A stretch of 64,000 bases of DNA from an uncultured Eubacteriales bacterium (GTDB lineage: Bacteria; Acidobacteriota; Aminicenantia; Aminicenantales; Aminicenantaceae): assembly GCA_964550165.1 (NCBI GenBank), contig CAZJYC010000004.1, positions 2,795 through 66,794 on the forward strand. Reading direction: 5' to 3'. The position numbers were made by a program, and so were the translations under genes. Shown here piece after piece: positions 4,876 through 43,331 of this stretch. How positions within the stretch are numbered: the stretch's first letter is position 1; every line of letters begins with the position of its first letter. The notes under the pieces were generated by a model. That model was given only the letters and a program-made list of their open reading frames with translations. It ran no database searches and was not told the origin of the DNA.

Positions 4876-6798
4876 ATGGCTAAAACAATAGGCATAGACC
4901 TTGGAACGACAAACTCAGTCGTAGCAGTGGTTGAAGGTGATCAGCCTGTCATCATTGCCAACGAAGAAGGTGGAAGAACAACTCCTTCAGTCGTGGCTTT
5001 TAACGAAAAAGGCGAGAGGCTGGTGGGTCAGGTTGCCAAAAGGCAGCGGATCACCAACCCTGAAAACACCGTCTATTCCATAAAACGATTTATGGGTCGC
5101 CGCCACCACGAAGTCGGCCAGGAAATCAAGCAAGTTCCGTTTAAAGTCGGCAAAGCACCGAACGGAGACGTAAGGATTGAAGTCTTGGGTAAGAAATTCT
5201 CCCCTCCGGAGATCTCTGCCCTTATCCTTCAGAAACTGAAAAAAGCGGCCGAGGATTATCTTGGAGAGAAAATCGAAAAAGCGGTGATCACGGTTCCGGC
5301 CTATTTTAACGATAGCCAGCGCAAGGCAACTAAGGATGCTGGCGTCATCGCAGGCCTGAAAGTGGAACGGATTATCAACGAGCCCACCGCAGCCGCTCTG
5401 GCCTACGGAATGGATAAGAAAAAAGATGAAGTGATCGCTGTCTATGACTTTGGAGGAGGAACTTTCGATATTTCAATTCTGGAAGTTGGAGAAGGCGTAG
5501 TTGAGGTTAAAGCCACCAACGGCGATACCCACCTGGGCGGCGACGACATCGACCAGCATGTCCAGGACTGGCTGGTGGCAGAATTCAAGAAAGAATCGGG
5601 AATTGACCTTTCCAAGGATAAAATGGCTCTCCAGAGGCTTAAAGAAGCGGCTGAAAAAGCAAAAATGGAGCTTTCGACAACCATGGAAACGGAGATCAAC
5701 CTCCCCTTTATCACCGCTGATGCCTCAGGCCCAAAGCACCTTTTGATGAAGCTGACCAGGTCCAAACTGGAACAGCTCATGGACGACATTATTCAAAGGA
5801 GTGTCGGGCCCTGCAAACAGGCTCTGGCTGATGCAGGCTTAAATCCTGAGAATATAGACGAAGTTATTCTGGTTGGAGGTTCGACCCGAATTCCAAAGGT
5901 CCAACAGCTCGTCAAAGACCTTTTCGGAAAAGAGCCCTGCAAAGGCGTTAATCCTGATGAAGTGGTGGCGGCAGGAGCTGCGATTCAGGGTGCTGTTCTG
6001 AGCGGAGAGGTCAAGGACATTCTCCTTCTGGATGTGACTCCGTTGACCCTTGGCATTGAAACCCTTGGCGGTGTCTTCACCAGGATGATTGCTCGCAACA
6101 CGACCATACCAACCAAGAAAACAGAAATTTTCTCCACAGCTGCGGATAACCAGCCGAGTGTGGAAATTCACGTGCTTCAAGGTGAAAGGGAAATGGCTGC
6201 GTATAACAGGACATTGGGCAGATTTCACCTCGATGGCATTCCGCCTGCACCCCGTGGCATTCCCAAAATCGAAGTGACTTTTGACATCGACGCAAACGGA
6301 ATTCTTCATGTCTCGGCCAAAGATATAGGCACAGGCAAACAGCAGGCCATCACCATAACCGGCCACAGCGGGCTTGACGAGAAAGAGATCGAAAGAATGG
6401 TCAAGGAAGCCGAAGCTCATTCTGATGAGGACAAGAAGAGGAGAGAAGTCATCGATACTAAAAACCAGGCCGACCAGATGGTCTACAGCCTCGAGAAACT
6501 GTTAAGGGAGAACAAAGACAGGATTCCTGAGCAAGAAGCAAGCCAAGTCCAGGCAGAGATCGAGAACACCAAAAAGGCCATTGAAAGCGAAGACCTTGAG
6601 CGGATAAAGTCAGCGGTGGATGCACTTTCCAGAGCTTCCCATAAACTAACAGAAATGATGTACCAGCAGGCCGGCCAGCAGCAAGCGCAACAGAGTTCTG
6701 CCCAAAGCCAAACAGAAGGCAAGCAGGCCTCATCCGATGCCTCTTCCGAAGAAGAAGTTATCGATGCTGAAGTTGTCGATGAGGACAAACAGAGCTAA
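4876..6798 (+). CDS. dnaK: Chaperone DnaK (full length, with lid)
   Basis: [32 protein letters not shown], acidic C-terminal tail; RBS AAGGAGG. Confidence 0.98.
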
Positions 6799-6864
6799 TC
6801 CTTGCTGACCGCTGGATAGAGACTGAGGCCTTTATTGTTATCTGAGAAAAGATAAGGCTCAGGA

Positions 6865-7971
6865 ATGAATAAAGATTATTATCAAATTTTAGGAGTTGAC
6901 CGCAGGGCCAATCTGGCGGAAATAAAAAAGGCTTATCGAAAGCTCGCCCGGAAATACCATCCAGACCTGAACCCAGGAGACAAATCGACTGAAGCCAAGT
7001 TCAAAGAAATCCAGGAAGCTTACTCCGTCTTGAGCGATCCTAAGAAAAAAAGTCAGTACGACCAGTTTGGCATTTTCGGAGAAACGCCTCCAGGAGGAGG
7101 CCCATACCAGACATACTCCTCAGGATTTGAGAGCTTTGATTTTTCTGACCTTGGAACCTCTTCGTTCAAAGATGTTTTTGAAAATCTCTTTGGAGCAGGT
7201 CGCCAGCGGACTCAGCAAAGAGCAGAAAGAGGCGAAGATCTTCTCTATACGATGAGAATGGGTTTCCTGGACGCAATCAACGGCCTGAAGACGAGAATTC
7301 AATTGACCCGGACGGTGGCCTGTCCCACCTGCGAGGGAACTGGCTATATCCAGAAAGGCGGGGAGCGCAGCTGCCCAGCATGCAGAGGGAGTGGCCGCAC
7401 AAGCGCACAAAGAGGCTTTATGAAGTTTTCCTCAACATGCCCTTATTGCGGGGGGACAGGTGTTCTTCCCGGACAGCAATGCTCAGCTTGCTATGGGCGG
7501 GGTTCAGTTCAAAAGATTGAGCTGATCAGTGTCAGGATTCCGGGTGGAGTGAACACAGGCTCGAAAGTGCGTATTCCTGGCAAAGGGAATGCAGGAAGGA
7601 ATGGAGGCCCTCCCGGTGACCTGTTCATCACGGTCGAGGTTGACTCCCATCCTCTCTTCAAAAGAGAGGGCTCGCACATTTATGTCAAAGTTCCCATAAC
7701 CGTGCCTGAAGCCACTCTTGGAGCAAAGATTGAGGTCCCTACGCTGTACGGCAGAGCGACCATAAAGGTTCCTCCTGGCACAAAATCCGGTCAAAAATTC
7801 AGGCTCAGGGATAAAGGAGCGCCTCTGCCAGGAAGAAGGTCCCGGGGTGACCAATTTGTGGAAGTGACGATTGTGCCACCTCCGTCGAACGACGAAAGAA
7901 TTCGAGAACTGATGAGAGAACTGGAGAAGGTCGCAAGCCAGAATCCAAGGGAAAAAATGGGGATTCATTAA
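6865..7971 (+). CDS. dnaJ: Co-chaperone DnaJ (class A)
   Basis: J domain with HPD, four CxxCxGxG repeats, C-terminal domain. Confidence 0.96.
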
Positions 7972-19691: not shown

Positions 19692-19939
19692 ACATGCCTC
19701 CTTTGATAATTTTTATCGGAATTATTTTAAAAAAATTAATCTCGTTATTCAAGCGCAAAAAAATTATTTTTTTTCGTTGCTTCCTTCCGCCTCGAACAAA
19801 GCGATAGCGCGCTGTTCCAATAGGTTGATGAAACGTATCCCTGTTTGTCAAATGAGGCCGATGATTTTAAAAACCGTTAGAGATGGCAAAACAGATCTCA
19901 GTAAGCCCGAAATCTTCGGGTGATCAAGAAAATGTGTTG

Positions 19940-19948
19940 TGGTATAAT
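19940..19948 (+). promoter_or_regulatory. Extended -10 promoter candidate for the dsrC-like operon
   Basis: TGgTATAAT about 200 nt upstream of the RBS-supported start. Confidence 0.5.
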
Positions 19949-20149
19949 AGCGCGTCGACTTTGGAAGAGGAATAAGATCGCATTCCCGCTTCCAAAGGCT
20001 GCTTCGCCATCTCAATTCAATATTCAGACGGGGCAAAGACTAGCTTCTTGCCGCCAAGAGAGGCCGCTCGCCTGGAATTGCTGACAAGCGGTTTTTCATG
20101 GCAAGCCGTGGGACATAGAGCGACCGTCAAAAAATTTAAGGAGCTCGCT

Positions 20150-20470
20150 ATGCCGTTCATCGAAGATAAAGAGAAAAAAATAGAAGTCAACGAAGAAGGT
20201 TTTTTAGTCCATCATGAGGATTGGAACAGGGAAGTGGCTGAACTTTTAGCCAGAGATGAGGAGGGAATAGAATCTTTAACTGAAGAACACTGGGCGGTTA
20301 TCAATTATATTCGTGACTATTATCTTGAGAATAAACTGGCGCCGATGGTCCGTAAGCTCTGCCAGAACACAGGATTTCAGCTCAGGCACATTTATGAACT
20401 GTTCCCTTCTGGGCCTGCCAAAGGAGCCTGCAAACTCGCAGGATTGCCCAAGCCCGATGGCTGCGTTTAG
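20150..20470 (+). CDS. dsrC: DsrC/TusE family sulfur-relay protein with both C-terminal cysteines
   Basis: RBS AAGGAG; EEGFL...WNREVAE..A, LTEEHWAVINYIR, LFPSGPAKGACKLAGLPKPDGCV (CX10CV). Confidence 0.88.
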   Translation: MPFIEDKEKKIEVNEEGFLVHHEDWNREVAELLARDEEGIESLTEEHWAVINYIRDYYLENKLAPMVRKLCQNTGFQLRHIYELFPSGPAKGACKLAGLPKPDGCV

Positions 20471-20485
20471 AAGGGAAGAATTTTC

Positions 20486-21112
20486 ATGCTTTCTGTTCTG
20501 AGGATTGCGACGTTCGTCTCCATCGCCATTTCTGTTATTTCCCTCTTTGTTCTGATTTTGAAGACCTTTTCTTTCGGCAAAAAGTCCCGCTATGCGCCTC
20601 CTCACGGAAGCGGGACAAAAGGCATCATTGACGCGTTTGGACGAGGCATGATGCCCTGGGCGAAAGAAAGCGCATCCCATCATCTCCCCACTTATATCGG
20701 CGGCCTGCTGTACCATGCCGGCATCTTCTCCGCGCTTTTCTATCTTCTCTCTGTCCTTATCCCTTTTGGTTTGCCGATTGCGTTCCTTACTCTCCTCCGC
20801 GCCTTTATCATCTTAAGCCTTTTGAGCGGATTTGCCCTCCTTATCAAGAGACTCGCCGTTCCTGCCCTGAAAAGGATAAGCTGCCCGGATGATTTCGCGG
20901 CGAATATTCTTGTTGGCCTTTTCCTTTTTTCAGCCCTGGTCCACACATATTTTGCGCGTTTGGCTCCCTTGTTCCTCTCTCTGGCTATCATCCTCTTTCT
21001 TTATATCCCCATGGGGAAAATCCGCCACTGTTTCTTCTTTTTTTACGTCAGAGTCCTCTTTGGGCTTTTTTTCGGGAGAAGGGGAGTCTTGCCCCGGAAG
21101 CAGAGGGTTTGA
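20486..21112 (+). CDS. DsrM/HdrE/NarI-like membrane cytochrome b subunit
   Basis: About 5 TM helices, candidate heme-ligand His residues (LLYHAG, LVHT, KIRHCFFFF); sits between dsrC and a DsrK-like gene. Confidence 0.72.
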   Translation: MLSVLRIATFVSIAISVISLFVLILKTFSFGKKSRYAPPHGSGTKGIIDAFGRGMMPWAKESASHHLPTYIGGLLYHAGIFSALFYLLSVLIPFGLPIAFLTLLRAFIILSLLSGFALLIKRLAVPALKRISCPDDFAANILVGLFLFSALVHTYFARLAPLFLSLAIILFLYIPMGKIRHCFFFFYVRVLFGLFFGRRGVLPRKQRV

Positions 21113-21115
21113 GAC

Positions 21116-22474
21116 ATGACTGAAAAAGACGGCGGGAAAGACTGGCTGGAAGAGAAAATCAAGGGTCTGAAACCAGAAGAATTGAAAAAGGCTATCAAGG
21201 GCTTTCAAGAGCTCATTCACTCTGAATATGCGGCCTGCCTCAATTCTTGTGTCCATTGCGGCCTCTGCGCCGATTCCTGCCATTATTATTTAAGCAATAA
21301 GGAGACCCCCTCGCTTCCTGCCTACAAGCTCGGTCTCGTGGCCTCTGTCTTCAAAAGATATTTCAGTTTTAGCGGGAAGAACTTTCCACGCTGGGCAGGA
21401 GCCAGAGAATTCAACCCGGAAACGGTCAGAGAATGGGTGGATACGCTGTTTGGACGATGCACGCTCTGCGGCCGATGTTTTCTCAATTGCTCCATGGGCT
21501 TGAACATTCCTTATCTCATCCGGGCCGCGAGAAACGCTTTGGTCATTCTGAATCTTGTCCCTCCCGGCCTCGACTCTACCGTTGCCACCGCTCTCGAAAA
21601 AGGCAACAACATGGGAATTCCTAAGCAAGAATGGATTGAGACGGTCCGCTGGCTGGAAGAAGAGCTTCAGAAGGAGGTCAGAGACCCGGAAGCCAGGCTT
21701 CCCATGGACAAAAGGGGTGAAAAGCTTTTATACACAATCAACCCCAGGGAGCCCATGTTCTTTCCTTTATCCATCGTCGCTGCCGGCAAAATATTTTATG
21801 CAGCAAAGGAGAGCTGGACTCTGTCCAGCGAAAACTACGACCTGACAAACTATGCGTTCTACACCGGGGATGAGAGAAGCGCTGCAATCATTTCCGAGAG
21901 GCTCACCCAGTCCATGAAAAAATTGGGCTGCCAAACTCTGGTTCTCGGAGAATGTGGTCATGGTTTCATCTCCAACAGGTGGGAGAGCCCGGAGTGGCTG
22001 GGGCAAAAATATGACTTTGAGGTCAAAAGCATTCTCGAGATCGTCGAGGCTTATCTTCGCCAGGGACGGATCGGGCTCGATCCTTCCCTCAATGCTGATC
22101 CCGTAACTCTCCACGACCCCTGCAACCTCGTCCGGCTGGGAGGAATTGTGGAAGAGCAGAGATATATCCTGAAGCAGGCTGTCAGCCATTTTGCGGAGAT
22201 GAGCCCCAACCGGGAAAAAAATTTTTGCTGTGGGGGAGGCGGCGGCCAACTGGCCATGAGCCGCTTCAGGCAGAGACGCCTTGACGCAGGCCGAATAAAG
22301 GCGGAGCAGATAAAAAAAACCGGCGCCAAAACTGTCGCCACTCCCTGCCACAACTGCATCGACCAGCTCATGGAGCTCAACAAGCACTACAAACTTGGAG
22401 TGGAGATAAAAACAGTCTGCGAAATTGTCGCCAAGGCCCTGGTCCTTGACAAGAACACGAAAGGCTCAGGCTGA
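21116..22474 (+). CDS. DsrK/HdrD-like Fe-S oxidoreductase (CCG domains)
   Basis: CVHCGLCADSC, CTLCGRCFLNC, ECGHG, HDPCN, FCCGGGGG, PCHNC. Confidence 0.88.
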   Translation: MTEKDGGKDWLEEKIKGLKPEELKKAIKGFQELIHSEYAACLNSCVHCGLCADSCHYYLSNKETPSLPAYKLGLVASVFKRYFSFSGKNFPRWAGAREFNPETVREWVDTLFGRCTLCGRCFLNCSMGLNIPYLIRAARNALVILNLVPPGLDSTVATALEKGNNMGIPKQEWIETVRWLEEELQKEVRDPEARLPMDKRGEKLLYTINPREPMFFPLSIVAAGKIFYAAKESWTLSSENYDLTNYAFYTGDERSAAIISERLTQSMKKLGCQTLVLGECGHGFISNRWESPEWLGQKYDFEVKSILEIVEAYLRQGRIGLDPSLNADPVTLHDPCNLVRLGGIVEEQRYILKQAVSHFAEMSPNREKNFCCGGGGGQLAMSRFRQRRLDAGRIKAEQIKKTGAKTVATPCHNCIDQLMELNKHYKLGVEIKTVCEIVAKALVLDKNTKGSG

Positions 22475-22490
22475 ATAACAAGCGCTGACT

Positions 22491-23660
22491 TTATCGATTC
22501 CTTCTGGATTCAGCTATCTCCTTAACAGCCTGGATGGTCAGGTCGATCTCTTCTTCTGTGTTAAAAGGTCCAATCCCAAAACGGACTGCTCCGTGGATCT
22601 TATCCGTTCCGAGCTGTTCATGGACACGGGGAGCGCAATGAAGGCCGGTCCGGCAGGCGATATTGTAATCCACATCGAGGATTGTTCCAGTGTTGATGGC
22701 TTCCAGACCGTTGACGTTGAGAAGAAATACGCTGATATGGTCCGTCAGATCATCCTGGCAATAGAGTGTGACTCCCTCGACATCCTTCAGACCGTCGCGG
22801 AGCCTTGTCGTGAGCTTCATCTCCTGCTCATGGATGGCGCTCAATCCTTTCTTTTTGACCCAGTTCAGGCCTGCATAAAGCCCGGCCACCCCTAGAACAT
22901 TCAGCGTCCCGTACTCGAGCCGGTAAGGATATTCCTCCAGATGCGTCCGGACAGCGGACCTGACCCCGGTGCCCCCGGCGCGGGTATGGCGGATTTCAAT
23001 CCCTTCCCTGACATACAGGCCCCCGATCCCGGTAGGGCCAAGCAGGGATTTATGGCCGGTGAAAGCCACCAGATCCACGTTCTGGTCTTTGATGTCGATC
23101 GGGATTTTGCCGGCGGATTGGGAGACGTCGACGGCAAAAGGGATGCCCCTTTCTCGGCAGTGCCTTCCGATTTCTTTTATGGGCTGAACCGTGCCGATAA
23201 CGTTGGAGGCATGATTGACGATAACGAGTTTTGTGTTCTTCTTGAATTTCTTCGGGAAATCATCAGGATCGACGAACCCTTTTTCATCAAACGGGATGTA
23301 ATCGACTGCGACCCCCGTATAACTGTAGAGATGATAAAGGGGCCTCAGCACGGAATTGTGCTCCAGGGTCGTCGTAATGGCGTGGTCGCCTTCCTTGAGC
23401 ATGCCGAAGATGATAAGATTCAAGGCATCGGTCGAATTATAGGAAAAGCATAGCCTGTTCGCGTCTTTTCCGTTAAAAAACTCCGTCAATTCTTTTCGTG
23501 TTTTTTCAACCAGTTCTCCTGTTTCCATACAGAGATCATAGCCCGAACGGCCAGGATTGACTCCAAAATTGCGGTAGAAATGATTCATGAACGTATAGAC
23601 TTCATCGGGTTTGGGAAAAGATGTGGCTCCGTTATCCAGAAATATGAGTTTACGCACCAA
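22491..23660 (-). CDS. Aminotransferase class V, cysteine desulfurase family
   Basis: FLDNGATSFPKP, LEHNSV, HASNVIG, DVSQSAG, FTGHKSLLGP, RTGLHCAP. Confidence 0.92.
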   Translation of the reverse strand: MVRKLIFLDNGATSFPKPDEVYTFMNHFYRNFGVNPGRSGYDLCMETGELVEKTRKELTEFFNGKDANRLCFSYNSTDALNLIIFGMLKEGDHAITTTLEHNSVLRPLYHLYSYTGVAVDYIPFDEKGFVDPDDFPKKFKKNTKLVIVNHASNVIGTVQPIKEIGRHCRERGIPFAVDVSQSAGKIPIDIKDQNVDLVAFTGHKSLLGPTGIGGLYVREGIEIRHTRAGGTGVRSAVRTHLEEYPYRLEYGTLNVLGVAGLYAGLNWVKKKGLSAIHEQEMKLTTRLRDGLKDVEGVTLYCQDDLTDHISVFLLNVNGLEAINTGTILDVDYNIACRTGLHCAPRVHEQLGTDKIHGAVRFGIGPFNTEEEIDLTIQAVKEIAESRRNR

Positions 23661-40617: not shown

Positions 40618-42201
40618 ATGGGCTATATAATTGGAGTTGACTTAGGGACAACGTTTTCCTGTATTGCCTATTTAGAAGGCGAAGAGCCAAAAGTTATTCC
40701 AAATCTGGATGGCATGCCGACCACGCCTTCCATTGTCAGTTTCACCAGCACAGGAGAAAAACTCATCGGAAACCTAGCCTTAAGGCAGGCCATCACCAAT
40801 CCTGAAAACACGGTATCCGCCATCAAAAGACTCATAGGCAAAAAATTCGACTCAGAAGAGGTGAAGGAAACCATCAGGAGAATGCCCTACAAATTAGTCG
40901 AAGCAGAAAATGGCGATGTCATGGTGGAAATAAATTCCAAGAAGATCAGCCCTCAAGAAATTTCGGCCATGATCCTGGGCTACTTGAAGAAATGTGCGGA
41001 ATCTTATTTTGGGGAAGAAGTGAATGAAGCTATTATCACCGTGCCTGCGAATTTTAACGACCATCAGAGAAAAGCGACTCGCGATGCAGCTGAAATTGCT
41101 GGCTTAGCCCCTCTGCGTATTATCAATGAGCCCACGTCCGCCAGTTTGGCCTATGGATTTAACATGCGAAAGAATGCAACCATTGCTGTTTTTGATTTAG
41201 GGGGAGGGACGTTTGATATCACCTTGATGGAGGTTAATGAAGGCATCTTCCATGTTTTAGCCACAAACGGAAATTCTTATCTTGGCGGAGAGGATTTCGA
41301 TAACCGCATTGTCCAGTGGCTGCTCGAAGATTTCCAAAAGGAAACCCATGTCGATTTATCCAAGAATAAGCTGGCCCTCCAGCGCATCAAAGAGGCTGCA
41401 GAAAAGACAAAACGGGCGCTTTCTTTCACCTTAGAAAGCGAAATCAATCTTCCTTTCATCTATTCAGACGCAAGCGGTTCGAAGCACATCAAAAAAAATC
41501 TCGAGAGGGAGAAACTGGAGGAGATGACAAAAGATCTGATTGCCGCAACCTTCCCTTACATCGAGAAAGCGCTCCAAGACAGCCACCTAACGCCAAAAGA
41601 TATCGATGAAGTCATCATAGTCGGTGGGCAAACCAGAATGCCGTTGGTTAAGATAATGATTTCGGATTTTTTCGGCAAAGAACCCATCGGAAATATTAAT
41701 CCCGACGAAATTGTGGCCATGGGAGCGGCTATTCAATCAGGAATCATAAGAGGAAAAATCACAGAACCTATCCTCCTCCTTGATGTCACATCCCATTCCT
41801 TGGGAATTGAGACAGAAAACGACACTTTCAACAGAATTATCGGGAGAAACACAACAATTCCAACCAGAAGGACTCGCTCCTTCACGACAGTCGAACACAA
41901 CCAGCCCAGAGTGAGGATCCATGTCCTCCAAGGAGAGAATGACACGGCCTCTGAAAATATATCTTTAGCTTACTTTGATTTGGTAGGAATTGAGCGCGCG
42001 CCCGCCGGTGTCCCCAGGATTGATGTCACTTTCGAAATAGACGCTGACGGAATTGTTAAAGTTTTTGCCAAAGATGTCGATACAGGCATAGAACAGAAAG
42101 TTGAAGTCAAACCTTCATCAGGCCTGTCCAAAGAGCAGATACATAAAATCGCCGACAGAATCCAGACCGATGAGTCCAAAGCAGAGAAAGAGAATAAATG
42201 A
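40618..42201 (+). CDS. dnaK: Second Hsp70/DnaK paralogue lacking the C-terminal helical lid (527 aa)
   Basis: [38 protein letters not shown]-beta present; ends just after SGLSKEQI. Confidence 0.92.
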
Positions 42202-43331
42202 CAAAAAGAGACTACTACGAAATACTTGGCCTCAGCCAAAATGCGACTTCAGAAGAGATAAAAAAGGCTTACCGTCAGATGGCCCTCAAATATCATCCAG
42301 ACAGGAACCCTGACAATAAAGATGCCGAAGAGAAGTTTAAAGAAGCCGCAGAGGCATACAGTGTTCTCATCGATACACAAAAGAGGTCTGTCTATGATCG
42401 CTTCGGCCACGACGGATTGAGGGGTGAGGGATACAGCGGCTTTACAGGCTTCAACTCTTCCATCTTCGAGGATTTCGAGGATATTCTGGGGAATTTCTTC
42501 AATTTTGGCTTCGGAGATCTATTCGGAACTCGACAAAGAGCGCGAACGTACTATCCTAAGAAAGGGAGAGACTTGGCTTTAGAGCTTGATCTCACTTTGG
42601 ACGAGGTTGCTTTCGGCGCAGAGAGAGAAATCAAGCTCAACCGACTCGACCTCTGTCCAGTCTGCAAGGGAACGAGGCTCCAACCCGGAACTCAAAAAAC
42701 GGTCTGCCGGGCCTGCCAAGGAAAGGGACAGATTCGCTACCAGCAGGGATTTTTCACAATCTCACGCACCTGTTCGCATTGCGGGGGGATGGGCGAAACG
42801 ATCACCACACCTTGCCCAGAGTGCCGCGGCTCAGGAAAGATTCGGAAAAAGAAAACTTTGACGGTCAAAATCCCGGCCGGTGTTGACGATGGGACAAGAC
42901 TCAGGATTGCCGGAGAAGGAGAAGCGGGGGACGCAGGAGCGGCCAAAGGAGACCTCTATGTGGTTATCCGGTTGAGGGAGCATGAGTTTTTTAAAAGGGA
43001 AGGGAACAATCTTTATTGTCAAGTCACAATATTCTTTACCCACGCAGCCTTGGGAACTTCAATCAGAATCCCTACCCTGGAAGGCGAGGAAGTTCTCAAA
43101 ATTCCGGCAGGGACTCAGCCAGGAGAAGTCTTCCGTATAAAAGGCAGAGGTATAAGAAACCTCGAAGGCCACGGAAAAGGAGACTTATACGTTAAAATCA
43201 ATATCAAAGTTCCTGAGAATTTATCCAGAGAACAAAAAGGCCTGCTTCAAAAATTCGCAGAATCTCGGGGGGAAAAGCTTGAAGAGCTGAATAAGAGCAT
43301 TTTCAATAAGGTCAAAAATATCATTCATTAG
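42198..43331 (+). CDS. dnaJ: Co-chaperone DnaJ (class A)
   Basis: HPD, G/F region with DIL, four CxxCxGxG repeats. Confidence 0.96.

Follow-up and report, generated by a model that had tools for sequence, protein, structure and literature searches.

The closest described counterparts of the locus analysed here are DsrMK(JOP) complexes acting with DsrC, and DsrMKJOP has been shown to reduce DsrC-bound sulfur with menadiol (PMC10861901). DsrC can be persulfurated in vitro by IscS and cysteine, or by sulfide, and its second cysteine has been reported almost exclusively together with DsrAB (PMC3397948). In annotation, DsrC or DsrMK matches without dsrAB are scored as false positives (PMC8477390). 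Neukirchen et al. 2023 (PMC10504309) note a lack of DsrAB for 7/74 bacterial assemblies and for basal Chloroflexi DsrM. A single-heme precedent with a menaquinone site is EtfD (PMC13083937). Here we analysed a 64,000-nucleotide stretch (the window) from an Aminicenantaceae MAG that is 87% complete. A description of the module that it carries was not found in the literature searched.

Organization of the locus

A two-cysteine dsrC is followed by a gene for a membrane protein with a predicted NarI fold and by a DsrK/TmcB/HmcF-type Fe-S gene, and a TIGR01977 desulfurase gene converges on the three. The first-pass annotation had reported dsrC-M-K-like genes facing a desulfurase, and HMM scores, motifs and coordinates bear this out. 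The features are as follows.

19939..19948, + strand: putative extended -10 promoter element (TG-N-TATAAT type) of the dsrC-M-K operon, read from the sequence
20150..20470, + strand: DsrC-type sulfur carrier, 106 aa, with C95 and C105 (PF04358 and TIGR03342 above cut-off)
20486..21112, + strand: DsrM-like NarI-fold membrane subunit, 208 aa, predicted single b-heme at H77/H181 (conservation, predicted structure)
21116..22474, + strand: DsrK/TmcB/HmcF-type Fe-S subunit, 452 aa (motifs, HMM scores, tree)
22491..23660, - strand: convergent group II cysteine desulfurase, TIGR01977 subfamily (score above cut-off, invariant residues, linkage)

The gaps between dsrC and the membrane gene and between the membrane gene and the Fe-S gene are 15 and 3 nt, respectively, and the stop codons of the Fe-S and desulfurase genes lie 16 nt apart, with no terminator found between them. 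The desulfurase start may be a GTG at 23657. The putative promoter element was not listed by the promoter scan; a comparable -10-type element lies ~30-40 nt upstream of dsrC in close relatives. A reading of the long leader upstream of dsrC as a cis-RNA was unsupported, as there was no Rfam match near the gathering score, the fold z was -1.0, and the leader was present as a single copy and unconserved in relatives.

Carrier and membrane enzyme

The carrier ends in C-X10-C-V, as noted earlier, and scored 129 bits with PF04358, 119 with TIGR03342 (cut-off 53.5) and 77 with the TusE equivalog (cut-off 191), so that it is a two-cysteine DsrC as opposed to TusE. Its terminal AGLPKPDGCV is within the one difference allowed from AGLPKPTGC, the DiSCo motif for DsrC (PMC8477390), and its closest PDB matches were sulfate-reducer DsrC (2xsj_C and 2v4j_C). 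Both cysteines are kept in 52/58 MK-linked DsrCs, while the second is Ala in the other six, and trisulfide or disulfide chemistry would therefore not be universal.

Pfam gave no match for the membrane subunit, and the HmcE match was weak (1e-4). Its predicted structure (pLDDT 95) has five long helices and matched NarI best (VIA Z 13.0, a borderline value for a helical bundle; rmsd 5.8, 164 aligned), followed by EtfD (Z 11.5, rmsd 3.2, 193 aligned). Foldseek also placed a NarI-type protein first (E 0.018, prob 1.0), with no match at E <= 0.001, and an hhalign comparison with DsrM (E 1e-6) backs the NarI-type fold, which DsrM shares. Among 102 homologues H77 is present in all and H181 in 101, and the other membrane histidines are unconserved; canonical DsrM (18 sequences) has four heme histidines, for two b hemes, and TmcC likewise has four. 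The subunit keeps only two of these four, and so probably binds a single heme and does not form a redox loop. The earlier label of a cytochrome-b-like protein is refined in that there are ligands for one heme and not two.

The Fe-S subunit carries motifs for two 4Fe-4S (cubane) clusters, a GECGH motif (Cys280) and one complete five-Cys CCG motif (C336, C371, C372, C411 and C414), which upholds its description as a CCG-domain Fe-S protein. This is the motif set of DsrK (two cubanes, one CCG and the GECGH Cys; compared with PMC10861901), and it is invariant in 53 DsrC-linked rows. HMM scores were 283 bits for HmcF, 282 for TmcB and 239 for DsrK, each below the model's own cut-off (400 for DsrK of DsrMKJOP, NF045796). 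Membership of a Tmc/Hmc complex does not fit the missed equivalog cut-offs or the periplasmic cytochrome partner genes, which were looked for and not found, and membership of HdrDE does not fit the single CCG stretch, where HdrDE would have two complete CCG motifs. A PDB sequence search returned no DsrK, TmcB or HmcF structure.

A 41-row, midpoint-rooted tree, built without an outgroup, archaeal DsrK or an AU test, set the Fe-S subunit apart from canonical DsrK by a 100/99 branch; TmcB was represented by one reference, on a long branch, and no HmcF reference above cut-off was found for it. It branches with a Firmicutes protein (L210) from a reductive-type dsrA-B-D-C-M-K-N operon, whose membrane subunit has the same two histidines; the L210 genome may have a further DsrMK. 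A grouping with unrelated Hdr/GlpC families, which the first-pass annotation had named as one outcome that would count against it, was not found: the subunit sits in a DsrK/TmcB-type clade that includes this dsrAB-linked member. Judged by its predicted single heme site and separate clade, the Fe-S and membrane pair is not canonical DsrM/DsrK.

Linkage of the desulfurase

The desulfurase scored 437 with TIGR01977 (cut-off 377), and its PLP lysine (Lys203) and catalytic cysteine (Cys341, within RTGLHC) are invariant alignment columns; the score, the lysine and the RxGxHC cysteine are those of group II cysteine desulfurases. Its orthologue was found in 28 of the 30 genomes of the order that have DsrC and in 0/11 that lack it. 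It adjoins 38/47 DsrC-type loci with enough flank, among them loci from Zixibacteria, Ignavibacteria and Holophagales, is absent at the other 9/47, and adjoins 0/33 TusA-type loci. In one closed genome (G039) MK lies ~1 Mb away and the desulfurase still adjoins dsrC, and it also stays by dsrC where another MK subclade substitutes. Orientation is usually convergent, not co-transcribed, and co-directional at three loci. Its occurrence together with DsrC, its position next to the module in other phyla and its staying with dsrC when MK moves make the desulfurase, on synteny and co-occurrence, part of the DsrC module.

A predicted complex of desulfurase and DsrC weakly supports the pairing: it scored 0.36 (best control 0.00) against a mark that 58/80 solved pairs and 2/110 mismatched ones reached, where just 7/80 solved pairs, yet both mismatches, reached the mark with scores <=0.60. 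Contact agreement between runs was 100% and partner pLDDT was at least 84.

Absence of dsrAB and distribution of the module

The lack of dsrAB near the operon, remarked on earlier for the window, extends to the source assembly and 40 relatives. A search of the source genome for dsrAB, sat and aprAB, as had been suggested, found neither dsrA, a NIR_SIR-domain gene nor aprA over cut-off, and sat lies alongside apsK among polysaccharide genes; neither AprAB nor a dissimilatory Sat, as required for dissimilatory sulfate reduction, is thus in evidence. Among 41 genomes of the order (three closed), dsrA was found in 0/41, DsrC in 30/41, the desulfurase orthologue in 28/41 and the K-like gene in 25/41, the last three occurrences all being nested; the genomes are related to one another, however, and linked genes can be lost from an assembly as a group. 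DsrAB of the minimal Dsr-pathway set (DsrABCMK) was accordingly found in none of them. The same dsrA search recovered 6/6 DsrMKJOP genomes as a positive control, and dsrA was also not found in 13 further DsrC-MK-module genomes, including two that are 100% complete in 1-2 contigs. dsrAB thus seems to be genuinely absent. The module itself was not found in 11/41 relatives, of which four have a completeness of at least 92%, and the MK pair is broken in one relative.

In other lineages TusA/DsrE2 takes the place of DsrC, or a type III SQR that of MK. Single-Cys carriers (TusA and one-Cys DsrC) likewise pair with the same MK family, which points to a terminal persulfide as the common substrate.

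A MenA-like protein was found in 34/41 relatives, most matches lying slightly under cut-off, and menD and mqnA/D were not found in the 41 genomes, so that the quinone would depend on salvage. UbiA/MenA was not found in the source genome either, probably an assembly gap since adjacent genes, signal peptidase included, are missing as well. The genome carries complex I genes and a Psr/Phs-type operon.

Proposed mechanism and alternatives

The interpretation of the locus as a membrane-linked thiol/persulfide redox module gained support, as neither a dsrAB pathway in the genome nor an Hdr/GlpC grouping was found. In the reading we prefer, with a probability of roughly 45%, DsrC receives a persulfide from the desulfurase, and quinol-dependent reduction by the MK-like enzyme then frees the sulfur as sulfide; that cysteine loads the carrier and that electrons flow this way are what we infer. 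The module would then be a DsrAB-independent carrier-persulfide:menaquinone oxidoreductase working in the reductive direction. The desulfurase would turn cysteine into alanine and hand the sulfur to the terminal Cys of DsrC, a pairing assumed here for a chemistry known in the family. DsrC would dock on the K-like subunit, where, by analogy with DsrK, the non-cubane cluster and the GECGH Cys would cleave the S-S bond, and menaquinol electrons would arrive via one cytoplasm-side b heme and two cubanes, a topology modelled on NarI and EtfD, with release of sulfide. Where DsrC has its second Cys, this residue could expel the sulfide beforehand, and the enzyme would then reduce the resulting disulfide. 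The net reaction would be cysteine + quinol to alanine + H2S, an electroneutral electron sink that would also clear reactive sulfane sulfur; any energy gain would arise upstream, e.g., at complex I.

The energetics set limits on this direction. The sulfur/sulfide potential is ~-270 mV, and an enzyme that lacks a second heme cannot draw on the proton gradient for reverse electron flow; reduction would therefore require either a carrier species of high potential or a very low sulfide level. Menaquinol lies at ~-70 mV (PMC10861901). Also against the reductive reading, the gene that stands in for MK next to DsrC in some relatives encodes a type III SQR, from a family usually oxidising sulfide. The mostly convergent orientation of the desulfurase, its absence at 9/47 loci, the dependence on quinone salvage and the kinship of the genomes count against it as well. 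Oxidation toward menaquinone is downhill with one heme, and the MK-like enzyme could be SQR-like, taking electrons from sulfide plus the thiol of DsrC (or from its persulfide or dithiol form) and passing them to menaquinone, whereby sulfide would be detoxified or DsrC charged with sulfane sulfur, with the desulfurase as a second input to that carrier. EtfD runs in that direction (PMC13083937), type III SQR-DsrC-DsrE2 is found next to, or together with, the same desulfurase in the absence of MK, SQR-III occurs among five closed or near-closed genomes solely in the one without MK, and the Psr/Phs-type reductase could consume quinol. We nonetheless regard the oxidative direction as unlikely, if well short of negligible, since desulfurase and oxidase would both load a carrier for which no DsrAB consumer was found, the dsrAB-linked clade member belongs to a dsrD-containing, reductive-type operon, and SQR was not found in the source genome.

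The remaining alternatives give DsrC or the desulfurase another role. That DsrC is a dithiol/disulfide shuttle, reduced by HdrABC-FlxABCD (bifurcation) and re-oxidised by the MK-like complex into the quinone pool, with the desulfurase just supplying Fe-S sulfur, would suit the hdrCB-kor-hdrA-flx cluster and two more HdrB loci in the source genome, the two cysteines kept in most MK-linked DsrCs and the interaction of D. vulgaris DsrC with Flx-Hdr in fermentation (cited in PMC10504309); it is made improbable by HdrB, which was found in 10/11 genomes lacking DsrC but in none of four full-module genomes that are 94-97% complete, by the six copies lacking the second Cys, and by rearranged loci in which the desulfurase tracks dsrC, not the Fe-S gene. 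A TusE-like biosynthetic relay for tRNA thiolation or cofactors, with MK just resetting the carrier's redox state, is more doubtful still: desulfurase to carrier is the customary start of such relays, and the source genome has IscS/IscU-like genes with tusA plus a lone dsrE2, but the TusE score falls far short, the neighbourhood shows no conserved acceptor gene beyond the order, and, as noted above, the module was not found in 11/41 relatives. TIGR01977 covers the selenocysteine lyase SclA, which could load Se on DsrC for reduction to selenide by MK; the SclA model, however, gave 300 (cut-off 525), no selD scored above cut-off in the source genome or in G039, a closed genome carrying all four module genes, and the examined neighbourhoods lack selenium genes, so we consider selenium handling very improbable. 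The slightest chance falls to an ordinary sulfite reducer with dsrAB on an unassembled contig, or to a decaying relic of the pathway. Incompleteness of the source genome, which lacks the signal-peptidase/menA region found in relatives, and the one broken MK pair would fit, but dsrA was found in 0/41 genomes, three single-contig ones included, and in none of the 13 further module genomes, and all catalytic residues are invariant.

We tentatively propose, with somewhat less assurance than for the core reaction, a single-heme DsrMK-like enzyme exchanging electrons between menaquinone and protein-bound persulfides on interchangeable DsrC/TusA with a dedicated desulfurase feed. This would be a widespread, undescribed pathway in which cysteine sulfur could serve fermenters as an electron sink, and it may be a case of the DsrC-DsrMK half of sulfite respiration at work without DsrAB. 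DsrC-DsrMK without DsrAB forms a large conserved exception across several sediment phyla: many anaerobes unable to respire sulfite keep the carrier and membrane Fe-S enzyme beside a cysteine-splitting enzyme. If it works as proposed, the module would be an unrecognised sulfide source (or sink) in low-sulfate sediments and would warn against dsrC/dsrMK as sulfate-reduction markers. As a minimal two-subunit, one-heme system, it could serve for studying DsrK-type cleavage of carrier-bound sulfur, and it bears on whether the second heme and DsrJOP make DsrMKJOP energy-conserving.

Comparison with known systems

The module shares with DsrMK(JOP), the menaquinol:DsrC-trisulfide oxidoreductase, a NarI-fold subunit, an Fe-S subunit that combines two cubanes with a single CCG cluster and GECGH, and a two-Cys DsrC alongside. 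It differs in lacking DsrAB, DsrJOP and DsrN, in its linked desulfurase, in its separate clade, in a membrane subunit of 208 aa with two heme His as opposed to ~330 aa and four in DsrM, and in the last CCG ligand, which is Cys in the module and Asp in DsrK. By its description, the 'dsrMK-only' basal clade that Neukirchen et al. reported in 2023 (PMC10504309) also has MK without JOP, and a further parallel is the Firmicutes dsrABD-C-MK-N member that groups with the Fe-S subunit, whereas lack of DsrAB is the rule in the module, and the sections describing that clade mention neither a desulfurase link nor a single heme. The Fe-S subunit scored highest with the models of TmcBC/HmcEF (282-283 bits), which have the identical motif set, but these scores are far under the cut-offs (735 and 750), the module has no TmcAD or HmcABCD, and TmcC has four His. 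Mycobacterial EtfD has a NarI-like membrane fold, one bis-His b heme, an Fe-S wire and CCG-type clusters, but is a fused ETF:menaquinone oxidoreductase without a sulfur carrier. In the IscS-TusA-TusBCD-TusE and Rhd-TusA-DsrE2-DsrEFH-DsrC relays, too, a carrier of the DsrC/TusE family receives a persulfide on its terminal Cys; unlike both, the module cluster has no intermediate carriers and ends at a membrane redox enzyme, not at MnmA or DsrAB.

Gene set at the dsrC locus

The four-gene layout proposed in the first-pass annotation was recovered in full:

20150-20470 (+), dsrC
20486-21112 (+), DsrM-like membrane subunit (M)
21116-22474 (+), DsrK-like Fe-S subunit (K)
22491-23660 (-), desulfurase

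Gaps of 15 nt and 3 nt separate dsrC from the membrane gene and the latter from the Fe-S gene, on which the desulfurase gene converges across 16 nt. In profile searches DsrC scored over the cut-offs for PF04358 and TIGR03342 but fell short of the TusE one, and the desulfurase exceeded the TIGR01977 cut-off. Among solved structures in the PDB, sulfate-reducer DsrCs were nearest to the DsrC encoded here. The Fe-S protein scored 283 bits against HmcF, 282 against TmcB and 239 against DsrK, every score lying under its cut-off. The dsrC start lies ~160 nt farther from the putative -10 element than in close relatives (interval 19949-20149); this single-copy stretch (fold z -1.0) had no match in an Rfam search, and the extra sequence looks like a lineage-specific insertion, not a conserved leader RNA. 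Elsewhere in the window, N-terminal sequences only place two dnaK-like/dnaJ-like gene sets within 64 kb (4876-7971 and 40618-43331).

The redox pair and its relatives

In the Fe-S subunit the eight cysteines of the cubane motifs, the one in GECGH and a complete five-cysteine CCG motif are all retained; this catalytic set of DsrK/TmcB/HmcF (PMC10861901) is invariant across 53 DsrC-linked homologues. In a 41-row, midpoint-rooted tree, with TmcB on a long branch, it fell within a 30-row clade (100/99) separate from canonical DsrK and four-histidine paralogues. The membrane subunit has a predicted NarI- and EtfD-like fold and only two conserved helix histidines, H77 and H181, whereas canonical DsrM and TmcC have four; by sequence, the absent ones are the inner pair. 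NarI H56 and H205 ligate the cytoplasm-side heme, and by analogy the heme kept here is predicted to be the proximal one. The MK-like enzyme is probably electroneutral, with no redox loop, and EtfD provides a precedent for a single heme of this kind meeting menaquinone (PMC13083937).

Related and respiratory loci (G000, source genome)
L210:1959-8533, Firmicutes UBA3576: dsrA-dsrB-dsrD-ferredoxin-dsrC-M-K-dsrN, two-histidine DsrM
L090-L132, Chloroflexota, Armatimonadota, Kryptonia: ArsR-DsrE2-TusA-M-K (L104 and L109 without dsrE2)
L055:4491-7960, L058:7644-9234, L061:5691-7818, Aminicenantales: type III SQR, one-cysteine DsrC, DsrE2
L002:2824-11608, G000 C6: Tat-signal Psr/Phs-like molybdoenzyme, NrfD-like and NrfC-like genes
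L216:1-10699, G000 C51: hdrC-hdrB-2-oxoacid:ferredoxin oxidoreductase-hdrA-flx-type cluster, then fumarate reductase-like genes

The 30-row clade includes the L210 protein, whose locus suggests sulfite respiration using a single-heme DsrM, and a sister group with ArsR-DsrE2-TusA in place of dsrC (L090-L132). Alanine replaces the first DsrC cysteine in 6 of 58 MK-linked DsrCs. At L055 a TIGR01977 desulfurase of the same type directly precedes the SQR cassette, and the closed genome G027 combines one-cysteine DsrC, type III SQR and DsrE2 with that desulfurase elsewhere and no K-like gene. The core shared by these loci is a terminal-cysteine carrier plus a quinone-linked S-S redox enzyme. Sulfate-reducer loci L196-L201 carry a two-histidine M and K pair of the same clade with dsrC not adjacent; their K has a C-terminal extension of ~140 aa, and sensor kinase/response regulator-like genes come next.

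Linkage of the desulfurase

Among 41 Aminicenantales genomes, a desulfurase orthologue (67-84% identity) occurred in 28, all DsrC-positive, and a K-like gene in 25, all also having DsrC and desulfurase; the 11 DsrC-negative genomes had neither. Of the DsrC-type loci whose flank was long enough to judge, 38 of 47 have the desulfurase alongside, those of Zixibacteria, Ignavibacteria and Holophagales among them, against 0 of 33 TusA-type loci. At rearranged loci it stays next to dsrC though the MK pair relocates (~1 Mb away in closed G039) or is substituted by a different MK subclade. Judged from this linkage, the desulfurase is part of the module. The predicted desulfurase-DsrC complex scored 0.36 versus 0.00 for the best control, which backs the pairing weakly: among reference pairs this level holds 7 of the 80 solved complexes, together with the two mismatches out of 110 that passed. 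Every contact (100%) recurred between runs, and the partners had a pLDDT of 84 or more. At L043:7501-8007, dsrC and desulfurase are intact and the MK pair is in fragments.

Absence of dsrA

The proposed genome check for dsrAB, sat and aprAB found no dsrA, nitrite/sulfite reductase domain or aprA in the 87% complete, 2.9-Mb source MAG; sat was seen with apsK, amid sugar-nucleotide genes, consistent with PAPS supply. The supposition that dsrAB is missing was borne out more widely: in samples of kin, mostly incomplete, dsrA occurred in 0 of 41 genomes of the order (three single-contig; 30 with DsrC), 0 of 13 further genomes with the DsrC-MK arrangement and 2 of 43 carrying a membrane-protein homologue, and was detected in 6 of 6 DsrMKJOP control genomes. 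Assembly gaps do not account for its absence alongside DsrC.

Candidate mechanism

We favor, at a probability of about 45%, a reading in which the desulfurase would generate a DsrC persulfide that quinol would reduce with release of sulfide; here we infer the transfer of sulfur itself, the number of hemes and their side of the membrane, the involvement of quinone and the direction of the reaction. This reading is weakest on energetics: menaquinol has little power to reduce sulfane sulfur, and a single heme would be unable to exploit the proton gradient, so an oxidative, SQR-like direction of the MK-like enzyme is a serious, if rather improbable, rival. A disulfide shuttle between Hdr-Flx and DsrC is possible, since Hdr-Flx genes are present in the source genome (L216), but HdrB distribution is independent of that of the module. 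Selenium handling is unlikely because closed G039 has the module and selD was not found there. Two further source-genome hdrABC loci (C7, C24) lie beside hydrogenase-related genes.

Quinone supply is uncertain. No menD or mqnA/D was found in the 41 genomes, 34 of which encode a MenA-like prenyltransferase, possibly reflecting precursor salvage or an unrecognised route. The source genome has complex I and Psr-type genes (L002); near the latter lies a fused NarI, 4Fe-4S and double-CCG protein, and complex I genes come after.

Relation to known systems

Neukirchen et al. describe a basal dsrMK-only clade with seven assemblies in which DsrAB is missing, and likewise basal DsrM in Chloroflexi that lack DsrAB (PMC10504309). 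DiSCo scores DsrC/DsrMK matches without dsrAB as false positives (PMC8477390), Stockdreher et al. describe the second DsrC cysteine as nearly restricted to DsrAB-bearing organisms (PMC3397948), and a sediment survey reported many MAGs with dsrC/dsrE and without DsrAB (PMC12740246). No description of the four-gene module was found in the literature searched. With its genes, motifs, linkage and dsrA absence in the sample established, the module is a real, conserved, uncharacterised variant assembled from known parts: in its predicted working it resembles DsrC plus DsrMK, but it belongs neither to the Dsr pathway nor to canonical DsrM/DsrK.
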